A stretch of DNA of 64,000 bases from Alphaproteobacteria bacterium UBA2964 (GCA_905182615.1 CAJJCG010000016.1:114250-178249), one strand, 5' to 3'. Positions 3,609 through 27,108 are shown, counted from the stretch's first letter. Made by a program: numbers and translations. Notes: generated from the sequence alone by a model not told the origin.

Positions 3609-4355
3609 ATGAGCGAAGAACCGAAATCAGGCGGGCCGGTCTCCAATGAATTTTTGGCCAATTTAGCGGCGGCGAGCCGTATTCTGGCGGCGCGCGGTGT
3701 GGTCGATGCGTTTGGTCATGTGTCGCAGCGCCATCCTGATAGAGCGGACCGCTATTTCATGTGTCGTGCCAAAGCCCCGGCGCTCGCCACACCAGAAGAC
3801 ATCATCGAATATGATCTCGACAGCAACCCGGTGGATGCCGACGGACGCGGCAGCTTTCTGGAGCGCTTCATCCATGGCGAAATTTTCAAGGCCCGGCCAG
3901 ATCTTAACTCAGTCGTCCATAGCCATTCACCATCAGTCATTCCGTTCGGACTGGTCGACACCAAAATTCAGGCAATGTTCCATAACGCCGCGTTTCTTGC
4001 GGCGGGCGTGCCGGTGTTTGATATCAGCAAGAAATATGGCGCGACCGACATGCTGGTGAGCGATAGCGATAAGGGTGAGACCTTTGCCGAATGTCTGGCA
4101 GACAAAGACGTCGCGCTGATGCGGGCGCATGGCTCGGTTGCCTGTGGCTCAACCTTGCAGCTGGCGGTGTTCCGTGCAGTGTTTACCGAGGTAAACTCGC
4201 GAGTACAGCACTGGACGATGGATCTCGCCAATGGCAGGCCTATCGCGGCGCTCAACGAAGAAGAAGGCCGCTTGGCCGATGTACCGAATAATGGTGCCTG
4301 TATGCGGGCTTGGGATTTGTGGCGCCGCGAGATCCGTGCCGAGACCAATTGGTGA
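3609..4355 (+). CDS. Class II aldolase/adducin-domain protein (paralog 1)
   Basis: GVVDAFGHVSQRH and VVHSHSPSVIPF are the metal-binding His patterns of the class II aldolase fold. The in-frame ATG at 3609 is preferred over the TTG at 3573. Confidence 0.8.
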   Translation: MSEEPKSGGPVSNEFLANLAAASRILAARGVVDAFGHVSQRHPDRADRYFMCRAKAPALATPEDIIEYDLDSNPVDADGRGSFLERFIHGEIFKARPDLNSVVHSHSPSVIPFGLVDTKIQAMFHNAAFLAAGVPVFDISKKYGATDMLVSDSDKGETFAECLADKDVALMRAHGSVACGSTLQLAVFRAVFTEVNSRVQHWTMDLANGRPIAALNEEEGRLADVPNNGACMRAWDLWRREIRAETNW

Positions 4356-4375
4356 TTTGAGGAAGGAATTTCCAC

Positions 4376-5056
4376 ATGAGTGACCTAGACGAACAAAAGC
4401 AGCAGCTGGTGCAATGCATCCGGATGCTCGAGCGCGGTGGGATTGTTGATTATAACGGCCATGCCAGTATCCGCCTTCCCGGCGACCAAATTCTGATCAA
4501 TATCGGCAATCGCACGCGCAGCACGCTGACGGTTGATGATCTCTGCATCATTGATTTTGACGGCAATGTGATCGAGGGCGACGGCAAGCCGCCGCTGGAA
4601 TTTCACCTCCATGCCGGTGTCTATAAAGCACGCCCGGAAGCCGGTGGTGTTATTCATTGCCATCCGAAATGGTCAACGGTCTTGTCGACCGCCGGGCAGG
4701 AATACTTGCCGGTCTATGCCCAGGGATCACTGGTCTATCCGCTGCCGGTGCTCGATTCACCGGATTCAATCAACAATATCAAAATGGCAACGGCGCTGAC
4801 CGATACACTCGGTGACCGGCCTGCAGCGCTGATGAAAGCGCATGGCGCGGTAACGCTCGGCGAGACCATCATCGATGCGTTCGTGTTGATGAACTATCTC
4901 GAAGACAATGCCGAGCGCCAATATATGGCAGCCCAAATAGGCACGCCCTACTCCTTCACTCAGGCAGAGCTGGATTTGTGCCGTGAGAAATTGTGGACGC
5001 CGGGCCTGTTCCAGCGCACCTGGGATCATTTTAGCGCCAAGATGGCCGAGAGCTAA
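4376..5056 (+). CDS. Class II aldolase/adducin-domain protein (paralog 2)
   Basis: IVDYNGHASIRLP and VIHCHPKWSTVL match the same fold. A GAGGAAGG RBS lies upstream, and the gene starts 20 nt after paralog 1. Confidence 0.8.
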   Translation: MSDLDEQKQQLVQCIRMLERGGIVDYNGHASIRLPGDQILINIGNRTRSTLTVDDLCIIDFDGNVIEGDGKPPLEFHLHAGVYKARPEAGGVIHCHPKWSTVLSTAGQEYLPVYAQGSLVYPLPVLDSPDSINNIKMATALTDTLGDRPAALMKAHGAVTLGETIIDAFVLMNYLEDNAERQYMAAQIGTPYSFTQAELDLCREKLWTPGLFQRTWDHFSAKMAES

Positions 5057-8215: not shown

Positions 8216-8472
8216 GATGCTCACCGCCTTGCCTGGGAGGGGTGAATTTTGAGGTTCGCCGACTTCAAATCGCCGGCGTCGTTCGTCCCGAGGATATAAC
8301 AGCCGACAGCGCAATTTCATACGAAAAGGTCGCAGAAGCACGCATTTCCTATGGCGGCAAAGGCCATATTACGGATGTTCAGCAGCCGCGCTATGGAACG
8401 CAGATTCTAGATGTTGTCTTCCCATTCTAGCTAGATGATCAATGAAGCCCTGTAACGAAGGACCCCACAGCG

Positions 8473-8889
8473 TTATTCGTCCCTGTGGACCCGTTCCATC
8501 CGTTCGTGCTGCTCCTGGGCTTCCAGGCTCAACGTGGCGATCGGTCGTGCTTCGAGACGGCGCAACCCGATGGGCTCACCGGTTTCTTCACAATAGCCGA
8601 ATTGACCTTGTTCGATTCGGTTAAGCGCTTCATCGATCTTCTGAACCAACTTGCGTTCGCGGTCTCGCGTCCTTAACTCAACAGCCCGATCGGTCTCCGC
8701 CGAAGCCCGATCTCCAATATCCGGTGCCTGTAGTGAGTCTTCCTGAAGATTTTGAAGGGTTTGACTGGTTTCGCGCAGGAGCTCTCCCCGCCATTGTGAC
8801 AAGCGTTGCCGGAAATACTCCCGCTGCTTGGCGTTCATGAAAGGCTCTTTTTCTGATGGCCTGTAATTCTTTGTTAGTTTCGGCGGCAT
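8473..8889 (-). CDS. dksA: RNA polymerase-binding factor DksA (zinc-finger-less type)
   Basis: It has the coiled-coil tip DIGDRASAE (DxxDxA), LRTRDRERKL, and FGYCEETGEPIGLRRLEARP. The four Zn-finger Cys positions read C/T/S/A. A GGAGGTGAC RBS precedes the ATG. Confidence 0.9.
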   Translation of the reverse strand: MPPKLTKNYRPSEKEPFMNAKQREYFRQRLSQWRGELLRETSQTLQNLQEDSLQAPDIGDRASAETDRAVELRTRDRERKLVQKIDEALNRIEQGQFGYCEETGEPIGLRRLEARPIATLSLEAQEQHERMERVHRDE

Positions 8890-16311: not shown

Positions 16312-16800
16312 TCACATGTTTGGCATAATGACCGTGTCGATGACGTGGATAACGCCGTTTGAGGCTTCGACATCTGCCTTAACCACCTTCGCTTTATCGA
16401 CCATGACGCCGCTATGGGCTTCGACCGATATCTTGCTGCCTTGCACCGACGCAACTTTCAGGGACTTGCCAGCAATATCGCTCGCCATCACTTTGCCGGG
16501 CACTACGTGGTAGGTAAGGATCGCCACTAACTTCGCTTTGTTTTCTGGCTTGAGCAAAGAAGCGAGCGTTCCAGCCGGCAACTTGGCAAATGCTGCATCG
16601 GTAGGGGCGAACACCGTGAAAGGGCCCTTGCTCTTGAGCGTACCGACAAGATCGGCAGCCTTCACTGCAGCTACGAGTGTTTTGAATGAACCAGCCGAAA
16701 TAGCGGTATCGACAATATCGCCAGCTCGGACAGTGGTTGCGGCGAGTATCATCGCCAGGGCAACGGATACAGTTCGGATAATCGTTTTGGGGGATTTCAT
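16312..16800 (-). CDS. Secreted fasciclin (FAS1) domain protein
   Basis: It has a signal peptide ([26 protein letters not shown]), then [24 protein letters not shown] and [13 protein letters not shown]. Confidence 0.85.
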
Positions 16801-17030
16801 GCAATTAGTTCCTTTGAGAGAAAAAATACTATTCTATTACGAACAGAACCCGAGAATTTTCTAATCAAAAAAAGTCATCTCTATTATCGGGCGTTCGGAA
16901 TTTTTACGGCACAGACAGGGGTTCAGATCACTTGCGTTCAGAAATAAAGACAACGTTTAGAACGGGCATTCCCTGACCCTCCCCGCCAACTGGATTGTCA
17001 GGCATATAATCATGGGCCGCACAGCTGCAA

Positions 17031-17384
17031 TTGCAAGATGGCAACTACGCAGAGCCTCTTGCTGCGACCGAGGGGCCGGGGCCAGTAATAGTTCTCAAAC
17101 ACCCCAAAATGCTTAAGAGCTTGCATTCGCCTATCGATATTTTCATTGCCTTTGAGCCGGGTGAGAGCGGTAAACCCGCGGACATGGAAACACTGAAAGT
17201 GACGCTTGTCGGCTTCATCAATATCAACATCACGGATCGCCTTCGTGAATATATCAAGGGGAGTAATTTAGATGTTGAGGAAGCGAAGCTACCAAGTGGA
17301 AAGCATCGATTGAGGATGCGGATAAAAGACATTGATGGCAACGCGAATGAACGTGATGTGGTTGTGACGGTGTTGAATGATTAA
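17031..17384 (+). CDS. Hypothetical protein (possibly 5'-truncated)
   Basis: The 117-codon ORF has only a TTG start and an in-frame stop 8 codons upstream. I see no signal peptide or known motif. Confidence 0.4.
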   Translation: MQDGNYAEPLAATEGPGPVIVLKHPKMLKSLHSPIDIFIAFEPGESGKPADMETLKVTLVGFININITDRLREYIKGSNLDVEEAKLPSGKHRLRMRIKDIDGNANERDVVVTVLND

Positions 17385-17693
17385 GATGTCAGGCCTCTTA
17401 ACAAACCATTAATTAAAGTTTCGGAGCCGCGTTTTTAGCGGGCTGCAGCGCCCTCGCCCACGGTCGCGAATGGGCAGGCTTGTGGCCTTTGGCCAGCAAG
17501 TAGCCCGCGAATGAAGCCTGGCGCTCCCGGCGCTTCGTTCTCAGATTAATATTCTGCAAGACGTAATCCCTCATAGCCATATAGGCTACGCGTGTGCCAA
17601 CAGTGATTTCCCACCCCGCGAACGCATGGACCATTGAAGCCGAGATTGTAAAATTGCCTTTACGTTGTATCGTTGATGGGGAAAAACTTGTAA

Positions 17694-18314
17694 ATGGTCG
17701 GAGATTACCCGGAACTGGAAGCTGCTCTTAAACGGGTGGGTGCGGATCAATCTGTGGGGCTGTACATTTCGATTATCGATTTGCAAGCCGAACGGGCCGA
17801 TATCGAAGATCACAAGCCACGAACGGACAACGACCCTTACGGTCCCATCCTCGGCGCGCTGAACGCATTCCTGCGCAGCCTCCGCCGAAGCACGCCCTCA
17901 CCCGGGAAGATAGCCAAGAAGCTCTCTAGCCTGCCCGAGCCGGTATTCCCGTTCATCAGACTTGAACTGGCTCGCCGTCTTGACCAAGAAATAGATCTCG
18001 AGAACGAAGACTGGTCGAAGCCCGAACTACGTGACGCATTAGAAGTGTCGGTAAGCCACGTTCGTCTCTGGTTCCGCAAGCACCCCGGCCCTGCGGAAGC
18101 TGTCGGCCTTGCCGGGTTCAGCCGCTCCGTCGCCCTGCTCTATAGGCAAATTGCGGGCAAGCCTCCCGGTCTTGGCAATCAGCTAGGCCGCAAAGGCTAC
18201 ATGACACCATTCGAGGAACTATGGCTTGCCAGCCTGCGGCTATTGAGCACCGATGCAACGCTTGACCAGGCCCGCGAGATATACCGGAAGTCCCCTCTGC
18301 CAACGAAGACCTGA
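17694..18314 (+). CDS. Hypothetical protein of the recombinase unit (possible HTH around ELRDALEVSVSHVRLWFRKH)
   Basis: This is a 206-codon ORF with an ATG start and coding-like composition. The only feature is a weak HTH-like segment. Confidence 0.5.
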   Translation: MVGDYPELEAALKRVGADQSVGLYISIIDLQAERADIEDHKPRTDNDPYGPILGALNAFLRSLRRSTPSPGKIAKKLSSLPEPVFPFIRLELARRLDQEIDLENEDWSKPELRDALEVSVSHVRLWFRKHPGPAEAVGLAGFSRSVALLYRQIAGKPPGLGNQLGRKGYMTPFEELWLASLRLLSTDATLDQAREIYRKSPLPTKT

Positions 18315-18552
18315 TACAGAGATACCTGACCTCACAATTGGTCGAGTAATTCCACAGCTTTTTATTGTTCGAGGCGCCACCATCTCGGATGTATGAGCAA
18401 TGTCCGCCTTCGGCTAACCAACAAATCCCGCGACCGGAGTCCGAGCACTCAACCCTGTTCGGTGTTGAGCGAATTCGCACGCCTTCTCGCGCGCCAGGCA
18501 GCCCGAGAAGCGTTCGCCCCACAGCAACCATCCAGCGATCACACTACACGAA

Positions 18553-18774
18553 TTGAGCCAGGTGGCCGCGATGCCTGAAATAAACCCCGACTTGCAAACC
18601 CGCTTACTGACACCAAGGGAGGCCGCCGGCTTTTTAAGCATCTCGACGCGAACACTGAGCCGCATCGTCCAACATGGTGACTTGCCAATTATACGCGTCG
18701 GCGGCTCGAACCGCTTCACCATGACCGATCTGACGGACTACATCGCTCGTAACCGGGTGCTTGGCCATGATTGA
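18553..18774 (+). CDS. Excisionase-family / AlpA-like HTH DNA-binding protein
   Basis: LLTPREAAGFLSISTRTLSRIVQHGDLPIIRVGGSNRFTMTDLTDYI is the typical excisionase-type (HTH_17) pattern. The real start may be the ATG at 18571. Confidence 0.7.
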   Translation: MSQVAAMPEINPDLQTRLLTPREAAGFLSISTRTLSRIVQHGDLPIIRVGGSNRFTMTDLTDYIARNRVLGHD

Positions 18775-18952
18775 AGCGGCTTGTCTTGTTATGGCGCAAT
18801 TTAGCATATGCAAACCAAGTATTAGTGAAAATATAATGCAAGTAATCAAAACGATTACCGGTCCTTTATTTTCACGATTACTTATAAGATTCTCCTTTTG
18901 TCTTCATTTGTCATAATTTGTCTATTATAATACTTCACGAAAGGATTACGCC

Positions 18953-20689
18953 ATGAGCTCAAGCAATGGTTTCGCCGATCCATCAATCCCCACGTTCGAG
19001 CAGGTACGAGACCAAATCGCATCTGATTATTCAATCGTCCACCAGGATCGTATGGACATGGTCTCTGCAATTAATCGGTTGGAGAACTGGTTCGGCCAGC
19101 CACTCTCTATGATCCCGGCGAGCGCCAAATTCCTGCGCCAGAAATTTAAAGCCTTTCATCATGACCAGGTCGGCGTAACTCGCAGGCGTGTACAGAACGT
19201 CAGATCATTGGTGCTTCGGGCCATGCGCACGGTTGGTCTTACGACCAAGCTCGCGCCATACCAATTTCCCATGACCAAAGAATGGAAAGCACTGTTTGAT
19301 GCTTTGCCAGATCGTTATGCGAAGACCTCCCTTTCCCGGATCATGCGCTATTGCTCAAAGCAAGGCATTCTGCCCGATGAGGTAAATGATGCCGTTGCAG
19401 CAGACTTTCTCTCTGCACTTGAGACAGAAAGTCTCGTGAAACACTGCAAGCGAGACCACCAGACTGTCTGTAGGGTCTGGAACAGGATGGCGGACACAAT
19501 GGAAGGTTGGCCCCAATCCAGGCTTGCCGTTCCCCGTTATGACCTGGGCCGTATTTACGCCATCGATGACGACTTGATCCATCCTGCACTTCATAGCGAG
19601 ATAGCAGGATATTTGAAATTTCTGGAGGGCAAGGAGCTGTTTGGCGGGCTCGCAAAGCCATTCCGCCCCATTAGCATCGATGCCGCCAGAGGCAACATTC
19701 GCCGCTATCTTTCAGCCCTGCATCTGGGTGGCTTCGACGTCATGTCCCTCCACAGCCTTCAAACCATGGTCGCATTTGACGTTTTCAAGCTCGCCATGGA
19801 ATGGTTCTGGCAGCGCAACGGACAAAAAACTTCCAAGCATATTGGTGAGGTGGCCTGGACGGTCCGCTGTATCGCCGTAAAACATCTTGAATGCGATGAC
19901 GCGACGAACGAACGCTACCGCAACGCGATAGGAAACCTGCGGGTTCAACACACCGGTCTCAGTACAAAGAACACCTCGGCCCTAAAACAATTCGATGACC
20001 CAAAGGTTGTCCATCGGTTGTTGAATTACCCTGACGACTTGTTCGGGACCGCTGAGAAGGCCAGCGGTCAGAAATCTTGCCTGCTGGCTCAGGCAGCCGT
20101 CGCCACTCTGATCCTTATCTTTGCACCCATGCGGATTAAGAATCTTGGTAGTCTCCGCATTGACGAGGACCTCAACTGGATTGATGGCCGACTTCACCTC
20201 CACATTCCTGCCGAGCAGGTAAAAAATAACGAGGAACTGAACTTCCTCCTGCCCCGTGGGCCGTCGGACAGGGTTCGGGAATATATCGACCGCTATCGCT
20301 CCATGTCCCTGCCACAAGCAAACCCTCATCTGTTCCCAGGCCGAAATGGGAAAGCCAAGGACATCACCGCCCTTCGGCGACTGATCTCCAATAGCCTGTT
20401 TAAACATACGGGCATCTGTCTCACGCCCCATCAGTTCCGCCATCTTGCAGCCAAGTTGTTGCTTGAAGCACGACCGGGTCATTACGAAGTCGTTCGCAAG
20501 CTCCTCGGTCATAAAAATCTGAGCACGGCATATAACCACTATACCGGCACCGAGACCCAGGCCGCGATTGATCTCTACGACAGCGTAATCCTGGATCGTA
20601 AGCGCGGCCTGTCGGGCAAACTCGAGGTGGACGACAATATGCCCTTCCTTGACCCCTTTAATCCTTTTCTAAAGGGGAATAAGCGATGA
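18953..20689 (+). CDS. Tyrosine recombinase (long, 578 aa)
   Basis: The catalytic pattern is present: R in APMRIKNLGSL, HQFRHLAAK, LLGHKNLSTAYNHYTG (R..HxxR..H..Y). Confidence 0.9.
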   Translation: MSSSNGFADPSIPTFEQVRDQIASDYSIVHQDRMDMVSAINRLENWFGQPLSMIPASAKFLRQKFKAFHHDQVGVTRRRVQNVRSLVLRAMRTVGLTTKLAPYQFPMTKEWKALFDALPDRYAKTSLSRIMRYCSKQGILPDEVNDAVAADFLSALETESLVKHCKRDHQTVCRVWNRMADTMEGWPQSRLAVPRYDLGRIYAIDDDLIHPALHSEIAGYLKFLEGKELFGGLAKPFRPISIDAARGNIRRYLSALHLGGFDVMSLHSLQTMVAFDVFKLAMEWFWQRNGQKTSKHIGEVAWTVRCIAVKHLECDDATNERYRNAIGNLRVQHTGLSTKNTSALKQFDDPKVVHRLLNYPDDLFGTAEKASGQKSCLLAQAAVATLILIFAPMRIKNLGSLRIDEDLNWIDGRLHLHIPAEQVKNNEELNFLLPRGPSDRVREYIDRYRSMSLPQANPHLFPGRNGKAKDITALRRLISNSLFKHTGICLTPHQFRHLAAKLLLEARPGHYEVVRKLLGHKNLSTAYNHYTGTETQAAIDLYDSVILDRKRGLSGKLEVDDNMPFLDPFNPFLKGNKR

Positions 20690-21741
20690 AACGGGTCCGC
20701 ACCTCATTGCTCCTTACGGAATGGCCTGCAAAAGACCAGGCCCTCTGGCAGGCTGCAAACAGCACTGGTGGGTTCCTTGCGCCCAACGGTAAGGCCGCGC
20801 ATTGGAAGAACAAAACCCGCAAGGGTGTTGTTAAACGATATAGCCTGTGGCTCGGATATCTTTCTTCGACGGATCAACTTGATCCGGATAAATCCCCCTG
20901 CGAGCGCATCACCGAGGAGACCCTCGCCGGTTACGTTCACTGGTTGGAAGCCCGGGGGAACGCCTCCACAACGGTCTCATCCTGTGTTCGTGACATTTAC
21001 GAGGCCCTTCGCGTCATGGACCCCGATGCCAATCATAGTGTGATTAAGAAACTAATGATCACCCTGCATGCCCGTGAAACGCCTGTCCGCGCCAAGCATA
21101 CCCGGATCCTGCATCCCGATGATCTTCTCTCAGGTGCCCTGGCGTTTCTCGACGATATTCTCAATCGTGAATTCTACAATGAAGCTTCACGTGCAGGTAA
21201 GTACCGCGATGGCCTGATCGTTGCCTTTCTTGCCTGTCGCCCTATCCGCCTTGGGAACTTGAGTGCAATCACCCTTGGGCAGCACCTGATACAGGATGGA
21301 GAGCGATGGATCTGTCAGTTTGAAGCGTCCGAGATGAAAGATCATTGCTCCATCTCCTTCTCATTTCCCGACCGGCTTATCCCTTATCTTCAGATCTACC
21401 TCGGCCGTTACAGACCCTTGCTTCTAAAGGGCAACGGGTTTGCGAACCTGTGGATATCAGCGCGCGGCACGCCCATGAAGGAGCAATCGGTATACTGCAA
21501 TACCTGCAGCATGACCGAAAAACTCTTTGGCAGAGAGCTTAACCCTCATCTGTTTCGTGATTGTGCAGCATCCGCTTTGGCCACTGATGACCCCGAGCAT
21601 ATTCTCGCCATCGCCCGCATTCTTGGCCACGCCTCAATTAACACCACCCAGCGTCATTACAACCAGTCCCAGATGATAGCCGCCACTGTCATCTACCATC
21701 AGGTCATGAAAGACCTGATGAAGGAGGAGTACAGTTTATGA
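20686..21741 (+). CDS. Tyrosine recombinase (351 aa)
   Basis: The catalytic pattern is present: RPIRLGNLSAI, HLFRDCAAS, ILGHASINTTQRHYNQ. The start ATG overlaps the upstream TGA (ATGA at 20686-20689). Confidence 0.9.
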   Translation: MKRVRTSLLLTEWPAKDQALWQAANSTGGFLAPNGKAAHWKNKTRKGVVKRYSLWLGYLSSTDQLDPDKSPCERITEETLAGYVHWLEARGNASTTVSSCVRDIYEALRVMDPDANHSVIKKLMITLHARETPVRAKHTRILHPDDLLSGALAFLDDILNREFYNEASRAGKYRDGLIVAFLACRPIRLGNLSAITLGQHLIQDGERWICQFEASEMKDHCSISFSFPDRLIPYLQIYLGRYRPLLLKGNGFANLWISARGTPMKEQSVYCNTCSMTEKLFGRELNPHLFRDCAASALATDDPEHILAIARILGHASINTTQRHYNQSQMIAATVIYHQVMKDLMKEEYSL

Positions 21742-23399
21742 GAGCCGTCATTTACGCCCGATACTCGACAGATCTGCAGTCCGCAACATCCGTCGACGAC
21801 CAGGTCCGGGAATGCCGGAAACGAGCCGAGGCGGACGGGCATGCAGTCGTCAACGTCTTCAGCGACCATGCGATCAGTGGCAGCACGCTCGGCAACAGGC
21901 CAGGCATGCTGTCTCTGATGGAAGCTGCCAAAGATGGCGGGGTCAATCTCGTATATGCTGAGGCACTAGACCGCCTCAGCCGCGATCAGGAAGACATCGC
22001 TGGCATCTACAAGCGTTTAAACCATGCTGGCGTCAGCATTAACACGCTTTCCGAAGGCCTGATCAACGAACTGCATATCGGCCTCAAGGGCACCATGAAT
22101 GCGCTATTCCTCAAGGACCTGGCCCTTAAGACCAAACGTGGCCTCGAAGGCCGGGTCCGTAAAGGAAAATCAGCAGGGGGGAATGCCTATGGCTATGACG
22201 TGGTCAAAAAAGTCGACGTTAATGGCGAGCCTGTTCGCGGAGACAGGAATGTTAACGCGCCGGAAGCCATTGTCGTTCACCGGGTCTTTGAGGCATTCGC
22301 GTCAGGAACCTCACCACGTTCCATTGCACACACCTTGAATGATGAGAATATCTCAGGACCTCGTGCTGGTGTGTGGGGTCCGTCCACCATCCATGGTAAC
22401 TGGCGACGCGGCACAGGTATTTTGAACAACGAACTGTATATCGGACGATTGATCTGGAACCGCCAGAGGTTCATCAAAGATCCGCAAACCGGCAAACGTC
22501 AGGCGCGGCTGAATCCTGAGAGCGAGTGGATCATCGAAGATGTTCCAGCTCTGCGCATTATCGACGATGAACTGTGGCTACGCGTCAAAGCCCGCCAAAA
22601 GAGGTCCCGCCATCCGGTCGCCGAGGAACATCACGGCATTCGTCCTGAGCGCGCCCGGCGACCTAAGTATCTATTATCAGGTCTTGTTCAATGTGGTGTC
22701 TGCGGTGGGGGATATTCAAAGATCAGCCAGCAACATTACGGCTGCTCGACGGCCCGCAATAAGGGCACCTGCGACAACATGCTGACAATCCGTCGGGATA
22801 TAGTGGAAGAGACAGTGTTGTCTGGCCTCAAAGACCGAATGATGCAGCCCGACGCCTACAAAGAATTCGTATCCGAGTTCAATCGCGAGCTGAACCGACT
22901 TGGCGCATCCGAAGACCAGGAACGCACCCGCCTCGCTGCAGACCTTAGCCACATCGACCGAAATCTTACTCGCCTGATCGACGCTATAAAGTCTGGTGTT
23001 CCGGGCTCCACCGTCAAAGACGAAATCTCGACACTTGAACTCCGCAAAACAGAGCTGAAGAACAAGCTGGAAGTCGTCCCTGCACCGCAACCGCGCCTGC
23101 ACCCACGTCTGGCCGATGTGTACCGCGACAAAGTCGCTAACCTGGTTGAAGCGCTAAACGCCCAAGATACGGTAGCCGACGCCGCCGAAGCAATCCGCGG
23201 TCTGATCGATGCTGTCCGTCTCGTGCCGGAGGAGGGTGAGCTTAAGATAGAGATATATGGCGAACTCGCGGCCCTTATAACACTTGGCCAAGAGCACAAA
23301 AGAAAACACCCCAGAGGGGATACCTCTGGGGTGCAAATAACGTTGGTTGCGGGGGCTCGCAACCGCCGTTACTTGCACCTTGATTATGCAAGGATTTAA
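21738..23399 (+). CDS. Large serine recombinase
   Basis: The resolvase N-terminus is MRAVIYARYSTDLQS...LDRLSRD. The recombinase domain reads YGYDV...WNRQRF, the Zn ribbon reads CGVCGG...GCS...C, and a coiled-coil tail follows. The start overlaps the upstream TGA (ATGA at 21738-21741). Confidence 0.9.
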   Translation: MRAVIYARYSTDLQSATSVDDQVRECRKRAEADGHAVVNVFSDHAISGSTLGNRPGMLSLMEAAKDGGVNLVYAEALDRLSRDQEDIAGIYKRLNHAGVSINTLSEGLINELHIGLKGTMNALFLKDLALKTKRGLEGRVRKGKSAGGNAYGYDVVKKVDVNGEPVRGDRNVNAPEAIVVHRVFEAFASGTSPRSIAHTLNDENISGPRAGVWGPSTIHGNWRRGTGILNNELYIGRLIWNRQRFIKDPQTGKRQARLNPESEWIIEDVPALRIIDDELWLRVKARQKRSRHPVAEEHHGIRPERARRPKYLLSGLVQCGVCGGGYSKISQQHYGCSTARNKGTCDNMLTIRRDIVEETVLSGLKDRMMQPDAYKEFVSEFNRELNRLGASEDQERTRLAADLSHIDRNLTRLIDAIKSGVPGSTVKDEISTLELRKTELKNKLEVVPAPQPRLHPRLADVYRDKVANLVEALNAQDTVADAAEAIRGLIDAVRLVPEEGELKIEIYGELAALITLGQEHKRKHPRGDTSGVQITLVAGARNRRYLHLDYARI

Positions 23400-23424
23400 A
23401 AGTTCCGCCGTTCGTACCAATACC

Positions 23425-23684
23425 TCATCTTCCGCATATCTCGCGACATCGCATCGGACCGAACCGGTTCCACCAGAACCGGACCGTCTCGTGGCAAATG
23501 TCGATGCCGCGCTCGAACAGCAGATCCTCGACCTCGCGGAGCGACAGTGGGTAGCGCACATACATCATCACCGTCAGGCGAATGATCTCGGGCGACGAGT
23601 TGAAATAGCGGAACGGATTTTTCATCCGCCGAAGCTAAGAGGCGGACCGGATCCACTCAAGCTATTTTGCTCTGACAATGCCCC
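23425..23684 (-). pseudogene. Truncated IS6-family insertion sequence (transposase N-terminus plus one terminal inverted repeat)
   Basis: MKNPFRYFNSSPEIIRLTVMMYVRYPLSLREVEDLLFERGIDICHETVRFWWNRFGPM is an IS6-type transposase N-terminus that ends after about 60 codons. The candidate IR is GGGGCATTGTCAGAGCAAAAT (reverse complement of 23664-23684), similar to the IS26-type GGCACTGTTGCAAA. Confidence 0.7.
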
Positions 23685-23915
23685 ATCAAGGTCTTGCTTG
23701 ATCCCTATGATGAAAGTGGATCCACCCGGCATGTAAAATCTAGACTGCCAATATACCGGCAATCAGCGTTGACGATAAGGGCATGGTCCATTTTCAGGCT
23801 TTGTCAGTCAGGGATTGTTTGACTCTTCGCCGCAAAGCAGCATAACAAAAGTGGGTATAATTTAAAACAATACCAATCGACGATATTTTGGATGGAACGG
23901 AATAGGAATTCTCAA

Positions 23916-25007
23916 ATGATAAGAACATCAATCTTAACCCTGGCTGCCGCCGGGTTTGTTGCCACCACATTTGGTGCACCATCTCCCGTCGTCGCACAAA
24001 AGGTCGACTTCGCCGGCAAGCGTATCGAATGGATTATCCCTTACGGCACCGGCGGCGGCTCAAACCGTTGGGCACGTTTCTATGTGCCATGGCTGCAAAA
24101 GGCATTGCCAGGCAACCCAATCGTCGCCGTCAAGAACATGCCAGGCGCCAGCTCGACCAAGGGCACCAACTATTTCGCCCGCCGCGGCACCAAGGACGGT
24201 CTTTCCATTCTCGGAACATCTGGCTCAACCCAGTTTCCGTTCCTGCTTGGTGACCGCCGGGTCAAATACGACTACGCGGACTGGGAAGTCATTTTGGCCA
24301 CCCCGGTTGGCGGCGTCGTCTATATAAACAAAAGTCTCGGTGTGAAATCAGCATCCGACATGAAGAAGCTACAGAAAGCCAAGCTGAAGTTTGGGTCACA
24401 AGGTCCGACGTCGCTCGATCTCGTACCGCTTTTGGCCTTCGACATTCTTGGCCTGAACGTAAAGCCCGTTTTCGGCATGAAGGGCCGTGGTCCGTCGCGT
24501 CTCGCTTTTGAACGTGGTGAAGTCCGGATCGACTATCAAACCACACCAGCCTTTCTGAAACGCGTCACGCCGTTGGTCAAAAAAGGCATTGCTATACCGA
24601 TCATGACCTGGGGCACGCTGAATGAAAATGGCAAGCTGGTCCGGGATCCAACTTTCCCGAACCTCCCGCATGTTGGAGAAGTCTATAAGATGATGCACGG
24701 CAAGGCTCCAAAGGGTCCAGCATGGACCGCTTGGAAAGCCTTCATGGCTGCTGGCTTCCCGGCACAGAAAATGATCTTCGTCAAAAAGGGAACGCCGAAG
24801 AACATCGTTGCTGCATGGCGTGCTGCCGCTGCAAAAGCCATCGCGATGCCTGGCTTTGAAGCCGCCAAGAACAAGAAGCTTGGCAAGTACGAACAGGCCA
24901 CCGGGAAAAAAGCCCAGGCGCTCTATAAGGTAGCAACCAACGTACCGCCCGCTGCCAAAAAGTGGGTCCTTAATTGGTTGAAGACCCGTTACAACAAGGT
25001 ACCGTAA
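23916..25007 (+). CDS. tctC: Tripartite tricarboxylate transporter substrate-binding protein (TctC/Bug family)
   Basis: It has a signal peptide (MIRTSILTLAAAGFVATTFGAPSPVVAQ) and the IIPYGTGGGSNRWARF / NMPGASSTKG pattern. It lies directly upstream of tctA. The ATG at 23916 is preferred over 23892. Confidence 0.7.
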   Translation: MIRTSILTLAAAGFVATTFGAPSPVVAQKVDFAGKRIEWIIPYGTGGGSNRWARFYVPWLQKALPGNPIVAVKNMPGASSTKGTNYFARRGTKDGLSILGTSGSTQFPFLLGDRRVKYDYADWEVILATPVGGVVYINKSLGVKSASDMKKLQKAKLKFGSQGPTSLDLVPLLAFDILGLNVKPVFGMKGRGPSRLAFERGEVRIDYQTTPAFLKRVTPLVKKGIAIPIMTWGTLNENGKLVRDPTFPNLPHVGEVYKMMHGKAPKGPAWTAWKAFMAAGFPAQKMIFVKKGTPKNIVAAWRAAAAKAIAMPGFEAAKNKKLGKYEQATGKKAQALYKVATNVPPAAKKWVLNWLKTRYNKVP

Positions 25008-25030
25008 CGCGTTAGACTATTAACGAACGA

Positions 25031-25065
25031 AGGGCGGAGAGACTTACCTATCTCCGCCCTTTTTC
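25031..25065 (+). terminator. Rho-independent terminator/attenuator between tctC and tctA
   Basis: A perfect 10-bp stem AGGGCGGAGA / TCTCCGCCCT with a 10-nt loop is followed by TTTTT. Confidence 0.7.
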
Positions 25066-25104
25066 GTAAGCTTTCGTTATTTCGGGAAATCCGGGGACAC
25101 CGTA

Positions 25105-27084
25105 ATGATTGAGTCCATGATTTCTGCCTTTGCTGAAATCACCAGCGGTACGCATCTGCTGTATCTGTTCGGCGGTGTCATCATGGGGCTGGTGGTCGGC
25201 ATCTTCCCCGGGCTTGGCGGTATCGTCGGCTTGTCTCTGTTACTGCCCTTCCTCTATGGCATGGACCCAACCTCGGCATTGGCGATGCTGATCGGTTTGG
25301 TCGCCATCATCCCAACATCCGATACCTTTACCTCCGTCCTCATGGGCATCCCCGGCTCCAGCGCCTCACAAGCGACTGTGCTGGACGGGTTTCCACTCGC
25401 CAAAAAAGGCGAAGCGGCCCGCGCCCTTGGGGCCGCCTTTTCGGCCTCGCTCTATGGCGGGGTGATCGGCGCCATAGTCCTGACTTTCTTTATCGTTATC
25501 GCCCGACCGGTAATCCTACTGTTTACCTCGGCTGAGCTTTTCATGCTCACCATTCTGGGACTTTCAATGGTTGGCGTTCTGGCCGGCAATTGCCTGTCCA
25601 AGGGCCTGCTTGCCTGCGGCCTCGGCCTGATGTTTGGCGCCCTCGGTGGTGCCCCCGCGACCGGTGAATTCCGTATGTCATTCGACAACGCCTATCTTGG
25701 CGATGGATTGCCATTGGTCGTTGTCGGGCTTGCCATGTTTGCAGTACCCGAAATCATTGATCTGCTGCGCAGCGGCGGCTCAATCTCAAAAAGCGCCAAA
25801 CTTGGTTCCGGTTGGACGCAAGGCTTCAAAGATATGTGGGCCTATCGCTGGCTGTGCACCCGCTGCGCCGGGATCGGCTGCATCATTGGCGCCCTGCCCG
25901 GCCTCGGCGGCAGTGTCGTCGACTGGATCGCCTATGGCCACGTCAAACAAACTGCGAAAGATTCCTCGCAGTTCGGCAAGGGCGATATCCGCGGTGTGCT
26001 CGCACCAGAATCTGCCAATAACGCAAAAGAAGGTGGCGGGCTGATCCCAACCCTTTTATTTGCCATTCCTGGTTCCGGCAGCATGGCTGTGTTTCTCGGC
26101 GGCATGGAGCTTATCGGGCTGGAGCCCGGCCCCAGCATGGTCGATGGAAAGCTCAACCTCACCTATGTCATCATCTGGTCGCTCGCTTTAGCCAATGTTA
26201 TCGGCGCAGGCTGCTGTCTGCTGATTTCCCGCAACGTCGCCCAGCTCACCACGATCAAATACGTCTATCTAGCGCCATTCATGGTCATGGTAATTTGTTT
26301 CGCCGCTTTTCAGGCGACCCGTGATCTCGGCGATCTGATGGTGCTGTTCGCTGTCGGGCTCGTTGGCATTATGTTCAAACGGTTTGGCTGGCCGCGCCCT
26401 GCCTTTCTGATCGGCTTCGTGCTCGCCGACAACTCCGAGACCTATCTTTATCAGGCAGTTCAATTTTATGACTGGGGCTTCCTATTACGCCCCGGCGTCA
26501 TCATCATTTTCGTGCTGACGGTGATCTCAATCTGGTTCGGCGCCCGCAACGCCCCGACCGGCGAAACAGATTTAGCCGACGAAAACAAACCAAAACCCAC
26601 CAATATGAAACCACAGGCCTATTTCGCCGCTTTTGTGGTCTTCCTGTTTGCCTGGGGCCTGATCGACGGAGTCCAGCATTCCTTCCTCGGTGCTGTTTAT
26701 CCCGTTGGTATTTGCCTGGTGATGCTGCCAATCGCCGGACGGCTCTTCTATGTCACCGCAAAAAACAAAACCGAGCATGCCGCTAATTTCGACTATGAAA
26801 TCGAGGGCGACCACGCCGGAAAAGAAGGCGTTCCCGGCCTCGTCTATTATCTGACATGGCTTGCTGGCTTTATCGCTACCGTCATGCTCGTCGGGTTCTG
26901 GATCGCGATCACCGGCTTCTTCCTAACCTTCCTGCGGGTGCATTCTGATGCGTCCTGGACACGTATCCTCACGATGACAACATGCGGCGTCGGGTTTATC
27001 ACCAGCCTGTCCTGGATCATGGTACTGAACTTCCCGGGTGGCTTTCTCCAGTATTATTTCAAACTGCCCTGGCCATTGAGCTAA
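25105..27084 (+). CDS. tctA: TctA-family large permease with a C-terminal four-helix TctB-like extension
   Basis: The TctA pattern is GIFPGLGGIVGLSLLLPF...GIPGSSASQATVLDGFPLAKKGEA. The last ~170 aa add four hydrophobic helices. No separate tctB gene is present. Confidence 0.85.
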   Translation: MIESMISAFAEITSGTHLLYLFGGVIMGLVVGIFPGLGGIVGLSLLLPFLYGMDPTSALAMLIGLVAIIPTSDTFTSVLMGIPGSSASQATVLDGFPLAKKGEAARALGAAFSASLYGGVIGAIVLTFFIVIARPVILLFTSAELFMLTILGLSMVGVLAGNCLSKGLLACGLGLMFGALGGAPATGEFRMSFDNAYLGDGLPLVVVGLAMFAVPEIIDLLRSGGSISKSAKLGSGWTQGFKDMWAYRWLCTRCAGIGCIIGALPGLGGSVVDWIAYGHVKQTAKDSSQFGKGDIRGVLAPESANNAKEGGGLIPTLLFAIPGSGSMAVFLGGMELIGLEPGPSMVDGKLNLTYVIIWSLALANVIGAGCCLLISRNVAQLTTIKYVYLAPFMVMVICFAAFQATRDLGDLMVLFAVGLVGIMFKRFGWPRPAFLIGFVLADNSETYLYQAVQFYDWGFLLRPGVIIIFVLTVISIWFGARNAPTGETDLADENKPKPTNMKPQAYFAAFVVFLFAWGLIDGVQHSFLGAVYPVGICLVMLPIAGRLFYVTAKNKTEHAANFDYEIEGDHAGKEGVPGLVYYLTWLAGFIATVMLVGFWIAITGFFLTFLRVHSDASWTRILTMTTCGVGFITSLSWIMVLNFPGGFLQYYFKLPWPLS

Positions 27085-27108
27085 GGGACCGTCCGTAAAG
27101 GAGATTAA

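Follow-up and report, generated by a model that had tools for sequence, protein, structure and literature searches.

The stretch of DNA analysed here, 64,000 nucleotides (nt) from Alphaproteobacteria bacterium UBA2964 (GCA_905182615.1 CAJJCG010000016.1:114250-178249) and referred to below in its full length as the window, carries two tyrosine recombinase genes (Y1 and Y2) followed by the gene of a large serine integrase (S). We interpret the region of ~17640-23356 as a two-part module forming the integrase end of islands that insert in the tRNA-fMet gene closing a ribosomal RNA (rrn) operon, with Y1-Y2 tentatively taken to resolve multimers; we would give this reading a probability of roughly two in three (0.68). 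Comparison of sequences with those of related loci (labelled L below) establishes the anatomy and conservation of the module, its breakpoints, the identity of its target, and the decoupled histories of S and the Y1-Y2 pair. The three recombinase genes are:

18953-20689, + strand: Y1, a large tyrosine recombinase of 578 amino acids (aa) with extra N-terminal helical domains and an Xer/Cre-like core-binding and catalytic region
20686-21741, + strand: Y2, a small tyrosine recombinase of 351 aa, the co-evolving partner of Y1
21738-23399, + strand: S, a large serine integrase of 553 aa

A preliminary description of the window, made from its sequence alone, had proposed three head-to-tail recombinase genes with ATGA junctions, and the open reading frames (ORFs) and junction sequences agree with it: GCGATGAAAC between Y1 and Y2 and TTTATGAGAG between Y2 and S are each an ATGA stop/start overlap. 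Its assignment of the genes to the tyrosine, tyrosine and serine classes likewise held in searches with Pfam profile hidden Markov models. Y1 and Y2 match PF00589 (6e-15 and 5.5e-10, respectively), and S matches Resolvase PF00239 (4e-22), Recombinase PF07508 (5e-21) and Zn_ribbon_recom PF13408 (1.5e-11), all three above the cut-offs, with integrase as its best PHROG (1e-87). The catalytic residues it had listed are present in all three enzymes and invariant in alignments of homologues down to ~27-30% identity: R394, K424, H493, R496, H520 and Y530 in Y1, i.e. the full R-K-H-R-H-Y set; R188, K218, H288, R291 and Y325 in Y2; and R8, S10, D78/R79/R82 and the zinc-ribbon cysteines C319/C322/C336/C345 in S (15 homologues). 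Both Y1 and Y2 carry the catalytic residues of the tyrosine-recombinase superfamily within the PF00589 domain, and S combines a resolvase domain that has the nucleophilic Ser with a recombinase domain and a zinc ribbon, as expected of large serine recombinases. The top sequence matches of Y1 in the PDB are XerC-like proteins and XerD, and its AlphaFold model (mean predicted local distance difference test score 77.8) matches the folds of XerA, Xer, Cre, XerH and Tn1549 Int, with ~330 extra helical residues at the N-terminus; among the NCBIfam models only those of Xer match Y1 and Y2.

The adjacency of the three genes is a conserved, tightly packed array and no accident of a single genome. A profile scan of one genome per species yielded 75 loci, and in the subsequent tblastn survey Y1-Y2-S are adjacent in 28 of ~58 informative species-level genomes (16/20 in the near clade and 12/~38 in the far clade), and Y1-Y2 are present without S in 30. 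The synteny supposed in the preliminary description thus extends well beyond one genome, with intergenic distances of mostly -4, -1 or 0 to +3 nt at the Y1/Y2 junction and of -4, -1, +1, +3 or +5 nt at the Y2/S junction. The same order is seen in many metagenome contigs, including unrelated ones with Y1 homologues of 46-75% identity, all of which are arranged as [unknown]-HTH_17-Y-Y-S. The hosts of the trio are mainly Alphaproteobacteria (Rhodospirillales, Rhodobacterales and Hyphomicrobiales, the isolate Rhodobacter amnigenus HSP-20 among them), together with some Gammaproteobacteria and one metagenome-assembled genome (MAG) of Blastocatellia.

Analysis of the co-variation of the three proteins, expressed as the Pearson r of pairwise identities among 15 complete trios, reveals that Y1 and Y2 follow each other closely (r = 0.945), whereas S follows neither Y1 (r = 0.205) nor Y2 (r = 0.306). 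For instance, L012 and L018 share 85% identity in Y1 and 87% in Y2 and 40% in S; L023 and L033 share 83%, 73% and 47%, respectively; and L102 and the window share 30%, 33% and 76%. The DNA of L012 and L018 matches at 85-93% identity over a stretch that begins ~505 nt before Y1 and reaches the Y2 stop codon; precisely at the ATG of S, identity drops to ~50%. Each part is also encountered alone. Y-Y-free genes of the S clade with ~50% identity occur in the chromid of Paracoccus ferrooxidans and in Haematobacter massiliensis pOT1-2, where the integrase heads an integrative and conjugative element (ICE) with repA-parA-traG-trb genes; the S-only genes of Paracoccus occupy the same position beside the rrn tRNA-fMet. 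Conversely, Y1 and Y2 with their helix-turn-helix (HTH) gene and no S were found on plasmids of Roseomonas and Pukyongiella, in the latter case adjoining toxin-antitoxin, par and rep genes. These relationships show that the trio unites a serine integrase with a cassette of paired tyrosine recombinases, the two evolving separately. The earlier notion of one co-evolved operon is not supported, since only Y1 and Y2 co-vary, the similarity breaks at the S start codon, and each part exists by itself.

The target of S can be read from the 3' end of its gene. The S ORF terminates within a complete antisense tRNA-fMet (CAT) gene in over 15 independent loci, a pattern that holds in nearly every locus; the tail of these integrated-type proteins, ...LVAG(A/V)GFEP(A/T)TFRL*, is encoded by the 3' half of tRNA-fMet, with the stop codon at the anticodon. 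Genes of tRNA-Ala and tRNA-Ile come after tRNA-fMet in L026, L033, L094, L095 and L102, and a 5S-like sequence adjoins it in L033, L094 and L095; the target is therefore the tRNA-fMet that closes an rrn operon. In the window the corresponding region comprises a 13-nt core, TGGTTGCGGGGGC (23344-23356), which is the reverse complement of the tRNA-fMet 3' end, followed on the right by CTCGCAACCGCCGTTACTTGCAC in place of the tRNA-fMet body. Two features overlap here with the 3' end of S:

23331-23378, no strand: attP-type attachment (att) site, with P arm 23331-23351, P' arm 23358-23378 and symmetry centre 23354|23355
23306-23334, - strand: intrinsic terminator on the tRNA-sense strand, within the 3' end of the S ORF

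The P and P' arms each match CGCAACCNNCGTTAYTTGCAC with 0 mismatches (chance expectation 0.02 per window), and the site as a whole is a 21+21-nt palindrome flanking a 6-nt centre, a layout which is that of a predicted serine-integrase attP. In silico it spans ~50 bp, has inverted half-sites and is unlike attB except for the core, the B' side (the tRNA body) being unrelated to P'. The final ~35 codons of S overlap the site, and the final 14-15 of them lie past the crossover and come from the P' side. Locus L099 is 99.4% identical to the window over 21137-23355 and then continues with a complete tRNA-fMet where the window has P', so that identity breaks at 23355|23356 and its S protein (P0121) has 549 aa with a tRNA-encoded tail, vs 553 aa in the window. 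L100 (92.6% identity over 17646-23356) and L102 are joined to tRNA-fMet in the same way. L088, on the other hand, matches the window (99.9% identity) on the right-hand side, starting at 23343, and has an AT-rich terminator-like flank on the left. Comparison of the window, L099 and L088 thus defines three junction types (P-P', P-tRNA and X-P') that share breakpoints inside the 13-nt core, and the tRNA-type and P'-type junctions part at the palindrome centre. The P arm is kept in the S genes of tRNA-integrated loci, S-only islands included. Exact core + P' sites were found in more than 120 metagenome contigs, with S on the left in about one third and both flanks highly diverse; given such diversity, and the absence of a matching Rfam family, we rejected the idea that core + P' belongs to an RNA gene already described or to a locus conserved among hosts.

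The terminator consists of a 12-bp stem (8 GC) followed by TTTTCTTTTGT and comes directly after the P arm on the tRNA-sense strand. An equivalent GC-rich hairpin with a T-run occupies the same place in nearly all S loci, again including the S-only islands. In the integrated island it would come right after the rebuilt tRNA and replace the native rrn terminator, which would be shifted to the far end of the island.

Several loci exhibit variations on this arrangement. In L072 (2637-4301) the frame of the S homologue enters a different tRNA-CAT of elongator type, and the core differs accordingly (TGGTAGCGGAGGA), which looks like a retargeting within the S clade. In Haematobacter (L094, 8597-8737, and L098), beside the rrn operon, the P arm and core occur twice at a spacing of 51 nt, and a degenerate P'-like stretch separates the two copies. 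An S-clade gene on a conjugative plasmid of Bradyrhizobium barranii (pBb323S2b, L096, 7001-8715) is followed by a ~55-nt remnant of the tRNA-fMet 3' end and then by an IS1380 element. In L004 (14427-15871) and L010 (14380-15897) S is followed by a 45-nt 3' part of tRNA-fMet and then at once by a P4-type integrase (Arm-DNA-bind_3), as if another island had entered this tRNA gene at its anticodon loop.

Upstream of Y1 the module contains three small genes and a conserved non-coding site:

17694-18314, + strand: ORF of 206 aa, the first gene of the conserved module
18393-18578, + strand: ARQAA ORF of 61 aa with the motif FARLLARQAARE, linked to S
18553-18774, + strand: HTH_17/excisionase-type protein of 73 aa (PF12728 4e-10, TIGR01764 1.2e-8, PHROG excisionase 1e-6)
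18823-18940, no strand: conserved non-coding site with inverted half-sites TAGTGAAAATA / TATTTTCACGA (GTGAA at 18825, TTCAC at 18871)

The excisionase-type HTH gene and the 206-aa ORF of no recognisable family had been anticipated in the preliminary description, and library searches confirm both: the 206-aa ORF has no match in Pfam, NCBIfam, PHROGs or PADLOC, and its homologues (28-88% identity) stand at the same position in L100, L015, L011, L018, L019 and L023. The HTH gene, whose likelier start is the ATG at 18571, overlapping the stop of the ARQAA ORF (it is called with 67 aa in L089 and L100), is part of the block that travels with Y1-Y2. The ARQAA ORF is associated with S instead. Its motif, L[AV]RLL[AG]RQAA, precedes Y1 by 475-550 nt in S-containing trios and was not picked up by our search pattern in the S-less loci scanned, and in the S-only islands L094-L096 an ORF of 74-78 aa with the same motif precedes S by 20 nt. 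Since the synonymous positions vary, it is a protein motif, which rules out a DNA core site, and we infer that the ARQAA protein is a candidate directionality factor or regulator. From its location beside S in the S-only islands and upstream of the cassette in the trios follows the layout ARQAA-[HTH-site-Y1-Y2]-S-attP, in which the bracketed unit is missing from S-only islands and found alone in other loci.

The non-coding site contains an extra TTCAC at 18934 and TTGTC repeats at 18898, 18908 and 18918. Its layout is kept in 14 loci with proteins merely 45-57% identical, the spacer between the HTH gene and Y1 being 170 nt. In the near clade the half-sites TAGTGAAA...TTTCACTA are centred ~100 nt before Y1 and accompanied by more copies of TTCAC and by TTGTC repeats; the distant clade has the same layout with other half-sites, TTCGGGAAnAC...GTnTTCCCGAA, and TCCCGA repeats, with the centre again ~100 nt before the Y1 ATG. 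Only the outer half-sites of ~11 nt are conserved, which eliminates a full 2x31-nt palindrome as a conserved feature. The site is intact and never split in all loci examined, and it co-varies with the protein clade, as would be expected of a putative cognate protein-binding site. The cassette occurs in several diverged copies within some MAGs, e.g. as a ~3.0-kb unit with 84% identity in L048 and L049 (one MAG), and as a ~3.3-kb unit that starts at the HTH gene, with 85-89% identity, in L044, L064 and L067 (one MAG).

The soil MAG MFD03399.bin.1.125 has four Y-Y loci (L044, L064, L067 and L073), in which core + P' lie ~100 nt past Y2 and precede 3' pieces of other tRNAs, namely tRNA-Ser and one more, possibly a graveyard of att remnants. 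In the S-less near-clade loci L022 and L040 (7989-8070) a different tRNA-CAT gene stands on the + strand ~1.9 kb upstream of Y1, i.e. on the opposite side and in the opposite orientation to the tRNA of the trios.

We propose the following scheme, in which the assignment of enzymes to cuts and the whole function of Y1-Y2 are what we infer from the arrangement. The S module comprises the ARQAA protein, S, and an attP that overlaps the stop region of S. S alone would catalyse attP x attB recombination between its palindromic site and the tRNA-fMet 3' end, with a crossover that falls within the 13 nt common to both, probably at the central GG. Upon integration the P side of the element rebuilds the tRNA 3' end and supplies the new terminator, antisense in S; because the integrated S frame runs into the tRNA and stops at the anticodon, S has one C-terminus before integration and another after it. 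The direction of recombination would be modulated by the ARQAA protein, the HTH protein or both. The HTH-site-Y1-Y2 cassette is lodged between the ARQAA gene and S, with translational coupling to the latter, and Y1-Y2 would most likely form a heteromeric Xer/Cre-like recombinase acting on the conserved site upstream of Y1. Our best guess is that it would resolve the excised island or plasmid when this is present as multimers, tandem arrays or cointegrates, a role that we favour because of the intact adjacent site, the Xer-like character of the pair, and the plasmid maintenance context.

A number of observations weigh against this scheme. The crossover position is deduced from breakpoints and not from observed recombination, and among the tRNA-integrated loci no complete island could be delimited: no attL was found upstream within 10 kb, nor within 49 kb in the Paracoccus and Haematobacter records (L045, considered as a complete island with attL beside Y2, was dismissed as its candidate site proved spurious). 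The scheme offers no mechanistic account of an exchange of S genes exactly at the start codon, and no explanation of why the P-P' junction of the window persists unrecombined in apparently ordinary chromosomal DNA, the 64 kb containing neither a second core, P or P' site nor plasmid or ICE backbone genes. The S-less cassettes L044, L064, L067 and L073 retain core + P' ~100 nt after Y2, so that Y1/Y2 might conceivably recognise the arms as well. Finally, several S-less Y-Y loci adjoin other tRNA genes (tRNA-Pro in L054, tRNA-Ser in L082), which favours an integrase over a resolvase role for Y1-Y2.

The main alternative, which we consider unlikely but deserving of serious attention, is that Y1-Y2 have a second, independent integration or cassette-mobility function, i.e. 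that they give the island a second target or move HTH-Y1-Y2 upstream of serine-integrase genes. It would account for the ~90% identical block of L012 and L018 that ends at the S start codon, for one S lineage joined to very different cassettes, for the diverged copies within MAGs, for S-less cassettes beside tRNA-Pro or tRNA-Ser with no room for another integrase, and for the excisionase type of the HTH partner; moreover, the intact attP of the window implies that the module was not placed there by S. However, we detected no cassette ends, target duplications or high-identity pair of empty and occupied sites; copies within a genome are only 84-89% identical, hence none is recent; and the site upstream of Y1 is never split, nor do direct repeats of the neighbouring tRNAs occur in the S-less loci. 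A bolder and more doubtful proposal holds that HTH-Y1-Y2 is a mobile cassette specialised on serine-integrase genes: it would insert exactly at the start codon of integrases specific for tRNA-fMet, separating them from their small accessory gene, and so take over their expression and make use of their att site, as a parasite or as a partner. If this were true, a start-codon-targeting cassette, a state-dependent C-terminus of S and an embedded terminator would together make a new kind of layered site-specific recombination system.

It is clearly improbable that the three enzymes cooperate in one movement reaction of a single co-evolved, small and cargo-poor transposon-like element. One could cite in its favour the tight ATGA-type overlaps across 28 species, the intact catalytic residues of all three enzymes, and a discrete 5.7-kb block common to the window and L100 whose flanks differ on both sides. 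Such an element is nevertheless hard to reconcile with the lack of correlation between S and Y1/Y2 (in L102 an S of 76% identity is paired with a Y1 of 30%), with the sharp breaks at the S ATG, with S heading islands and an ICE alone at the same target, and with Y-Y alone in 30 genomes and on plasmids; in addition, there are no terminal repeats around the block and no att sequence at its left end.

We also considered whether Y1 and/or Y2 are MOB_M-type relaxases (similar to TcpM, MobK or MpsA) that would nick an origin of transfer upstream of Y1 while S integrates. Integrase is a frequent annotation of MOB_M relaxases, 96% of which have an integrase nearby (bioRxiv 10.64898/2026.01.13.699239); the cassette also occurs on small plasmids typed as non-mobilizable, and a repeat-rich non-coding site adjoins its genes. 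Comparison with TcpM, however, revealed no similarity for either protein (hhalign probability 0.6% for the Y1 profile, E = 2.8 for Y2), none of the NCBIfam matches is MobM, all of them being Xer models, and the pair co-evolves, keeps its catalytic residues and matches Xer/Cre folds, which makes this identity very improbable and leads us to reject it. The least probable explanation, namely that two types of tRNA-favouring islands without functional link piled up and deletions left their integrase genes adjacent, agrees with the decoupled histories, with other integrase islands stacked at the same tRNA (L004, L010) and with the graveyards of tRNA fragments beside cassettes, but random deletions are unlikely to have produced, time and again and over a range of 27-100% Y1 identity, Y2/S junctions as tight as -4 to +5 nt, with the cassette always between the S-linked ARQAA gene and S and with all genes intact.

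Among known systems, S shares with the class of phiC31, Bxb1, A118, TnpX and CcrAB the Resolvase, Recombinase, zinc-ribbon and coiled-coil regions and the catalytic Ser10, and with large serine integrases in general the ~50-bp imperfectly palindromic attP with a non-palindromic centre and the location of the gene at the end of the element, some of them heading ICEs. It differs from them in that its ORF crosses the att site and changes its C-terminus with the integration state, in that an antisense rrn/tRNA terminator is embedded in it, in its position in an operon behind two tyrosine recombinases, and in that the directionality factor, which such integrases need for excision, is here a candidate. 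With XerC/XerD-dif, Cre-loxP and ResD-rfsF, Y1-Y2 share two paralogous Xer-like recombinases and a candidate site that adjoins the genes and is always intact; in contrast to these multimer-resolution systems, Y1 has ~330 extra N-terminal residues, and the half-sites of the candidate site are ~46 nt apart and accompanied by direct repeats instead of following the 11-6-11 pattern.

As in recombinase-in-trio (RIT) elements and GInt islands, several recombinase genes form a tightly packed overlapping array that recurs across genomes. GInt islands (ginABCD) contain three tyrosine recombinases and are not known to include a serine recombinase. RIT elements are characterized by three consecutive tyrosine recombinases, RitA, RitB and RitC, and by long inverted repeats (PMC3414803, PMC8138268), whereas here we find two tyrosine recombinases and one serine recombinase, no flanking inverted repeats in 16700-24000, and a third enzyme with an independent evolutionary history. 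Tn554 (TnpA/TnpB) and the strand-biased circularizing integrative elements, which have the order intA-CDS2-intB-CDS4 (PMC9345347), resemble the cassette in their side-by-side pair of tyrosine recombinases, of which one has an ordinary size and the other a greatly extended N-terminus, with R-H-R-Y kept in both, and in their small accessory proteins. The present module differs from them in its order (large, then small), in the excisionase-type HTH gene that comes first, in the attached serine integrase, and in that no terminal C/C' repeats were found. A tblastn search of 72,556 PLSDB plasmids with Y1 returned alphaproteobacterial records only and no Tn554-type match. Transposons of these types also have defined ends, form a circular intermediate and insert at preferred sites that lack S-type att sites; for the cassette, block boundaries emerged from comparison of copies.

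A serine recombinase at tRNA-Met has been reported for Paracoccus phage vB_PamS_Pami6 (PMC6536676), and Cury et al. (PMC5587801) listed six ICEs with both serine and tyrosine recombinases, which were not analysed there. In agreement with the preliminary description, which knew of no named family with a Y-Y-S architecture, we found no account of such a module in the literature, although subscription journals were thinly covered and an earlier account is possible. Taken singly, the parts belong to familiar kinds; what appears to be undescribed is their recurrent fusion in one array and the overlap of att site, tRNA end, terminator and coding sequence. Islands and ICEs of Alphaproteobacteria, and some of gammaproteobacterial and acidobacterial hosts, thereby acquire a widespread type of integration module that seems to be undescribed. 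One S coding region would at the same time provide half of its att site, restore the 3' end of an essential tRNA and terminate an rRNA operon, and serine and tyrosine systems can be joined in one translationally coupled operon and yet evolve as separate modules. This bears on the exchange of integration functions among mobile elements and on annotation, in which multi-integrase loci are usually discarded as "composite". As the in-silico attP/attB pair is precise, it is directly testable in work on large serine integrases, genome-engineering uses included.

In the window itself, comparison with L100 and L099 places the conserved module between ~17640, where the similarity to L100 starts ~50 nt before the 206-aa ORF, and the crossover at 23355|23356; the unit ends of 17390 and 23684 given in the preliminary description are thereby superseded. 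Its view of a small, cargo-poor element fares no better: the genes are the tRNA-proximal integrase end of islands whose other end was not found within 10-49 kb in the relatives, so that a near absence of cargo is not deducible from the window. Nothing convincing in the way of terminal repeats, direct or inverted, emerged around 16700-24000. The att site is in the unrecombined P-P' state, the module is intact, and the DNA to its right belongs to the P' side; the copy may represent a junction of two islands, a part of a large episomal or excised element, or a placement by Y1-Y2. There are no tRNA genes in the window, no near-identical DNA in plasmids, and no defence-system families beyond a weak HTH match. 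Exact-protein look-ups of the flanking genes yielded no empty site, L090 and L088 sharing one flank each and being unmatched in the other.

On the left, the context (a fasciclin gene and a 117-aa ORF) is confirmed by the contigs L089, L091 and L092, and an apparent break at 16850 fades gradually to ~16950. The interval from the fasciclin gene to the module holds the 117-aa ORF (17031-17384, + strand) and an ORF of 73 aa (17413-17634, - strand); the former has no homologue in the related loci and was therefore rejected as a part of the module. A ~60-nt patch at 17420-17480 is ~70% similar to L100. On the right, beyond the crossover and outside the module, lies one further feature:

23425-23625, - strand: ORF of 66 aa on the P' side, resembling the N-terminal HTH of IS6-family transposases

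The 66-aa ORF matches NF033587 (3e-13) over profile positions 4-54 of 202 and is 100% identical in L088; the partial profile match, and the lack of a second copy or a terminal inverted repeat in the window, rule out a full IS6 element, i.e. a ~230-aa DDE transposase with such repeats. It lies 50 nt to the right of the P' arm and is no general feature of P' sites (4/59). A 68% homologue of the fragment is found in L004 (8372-8533, + strand) on the opposite side of the module. In L088 the arrangement of site and IS6 fragment occurs at 4247-4444 and again at ~8370-8551 with 71% identity. The segment 4162-8551 of this locus, which matches window 23343-27092, has two direct X-core-P' sites 4.2 kb apart that bracket the IS6 fragment and the TctC and TctA transporter genes, and may be an integrase-less remnant or a cis-mobilisable segment.

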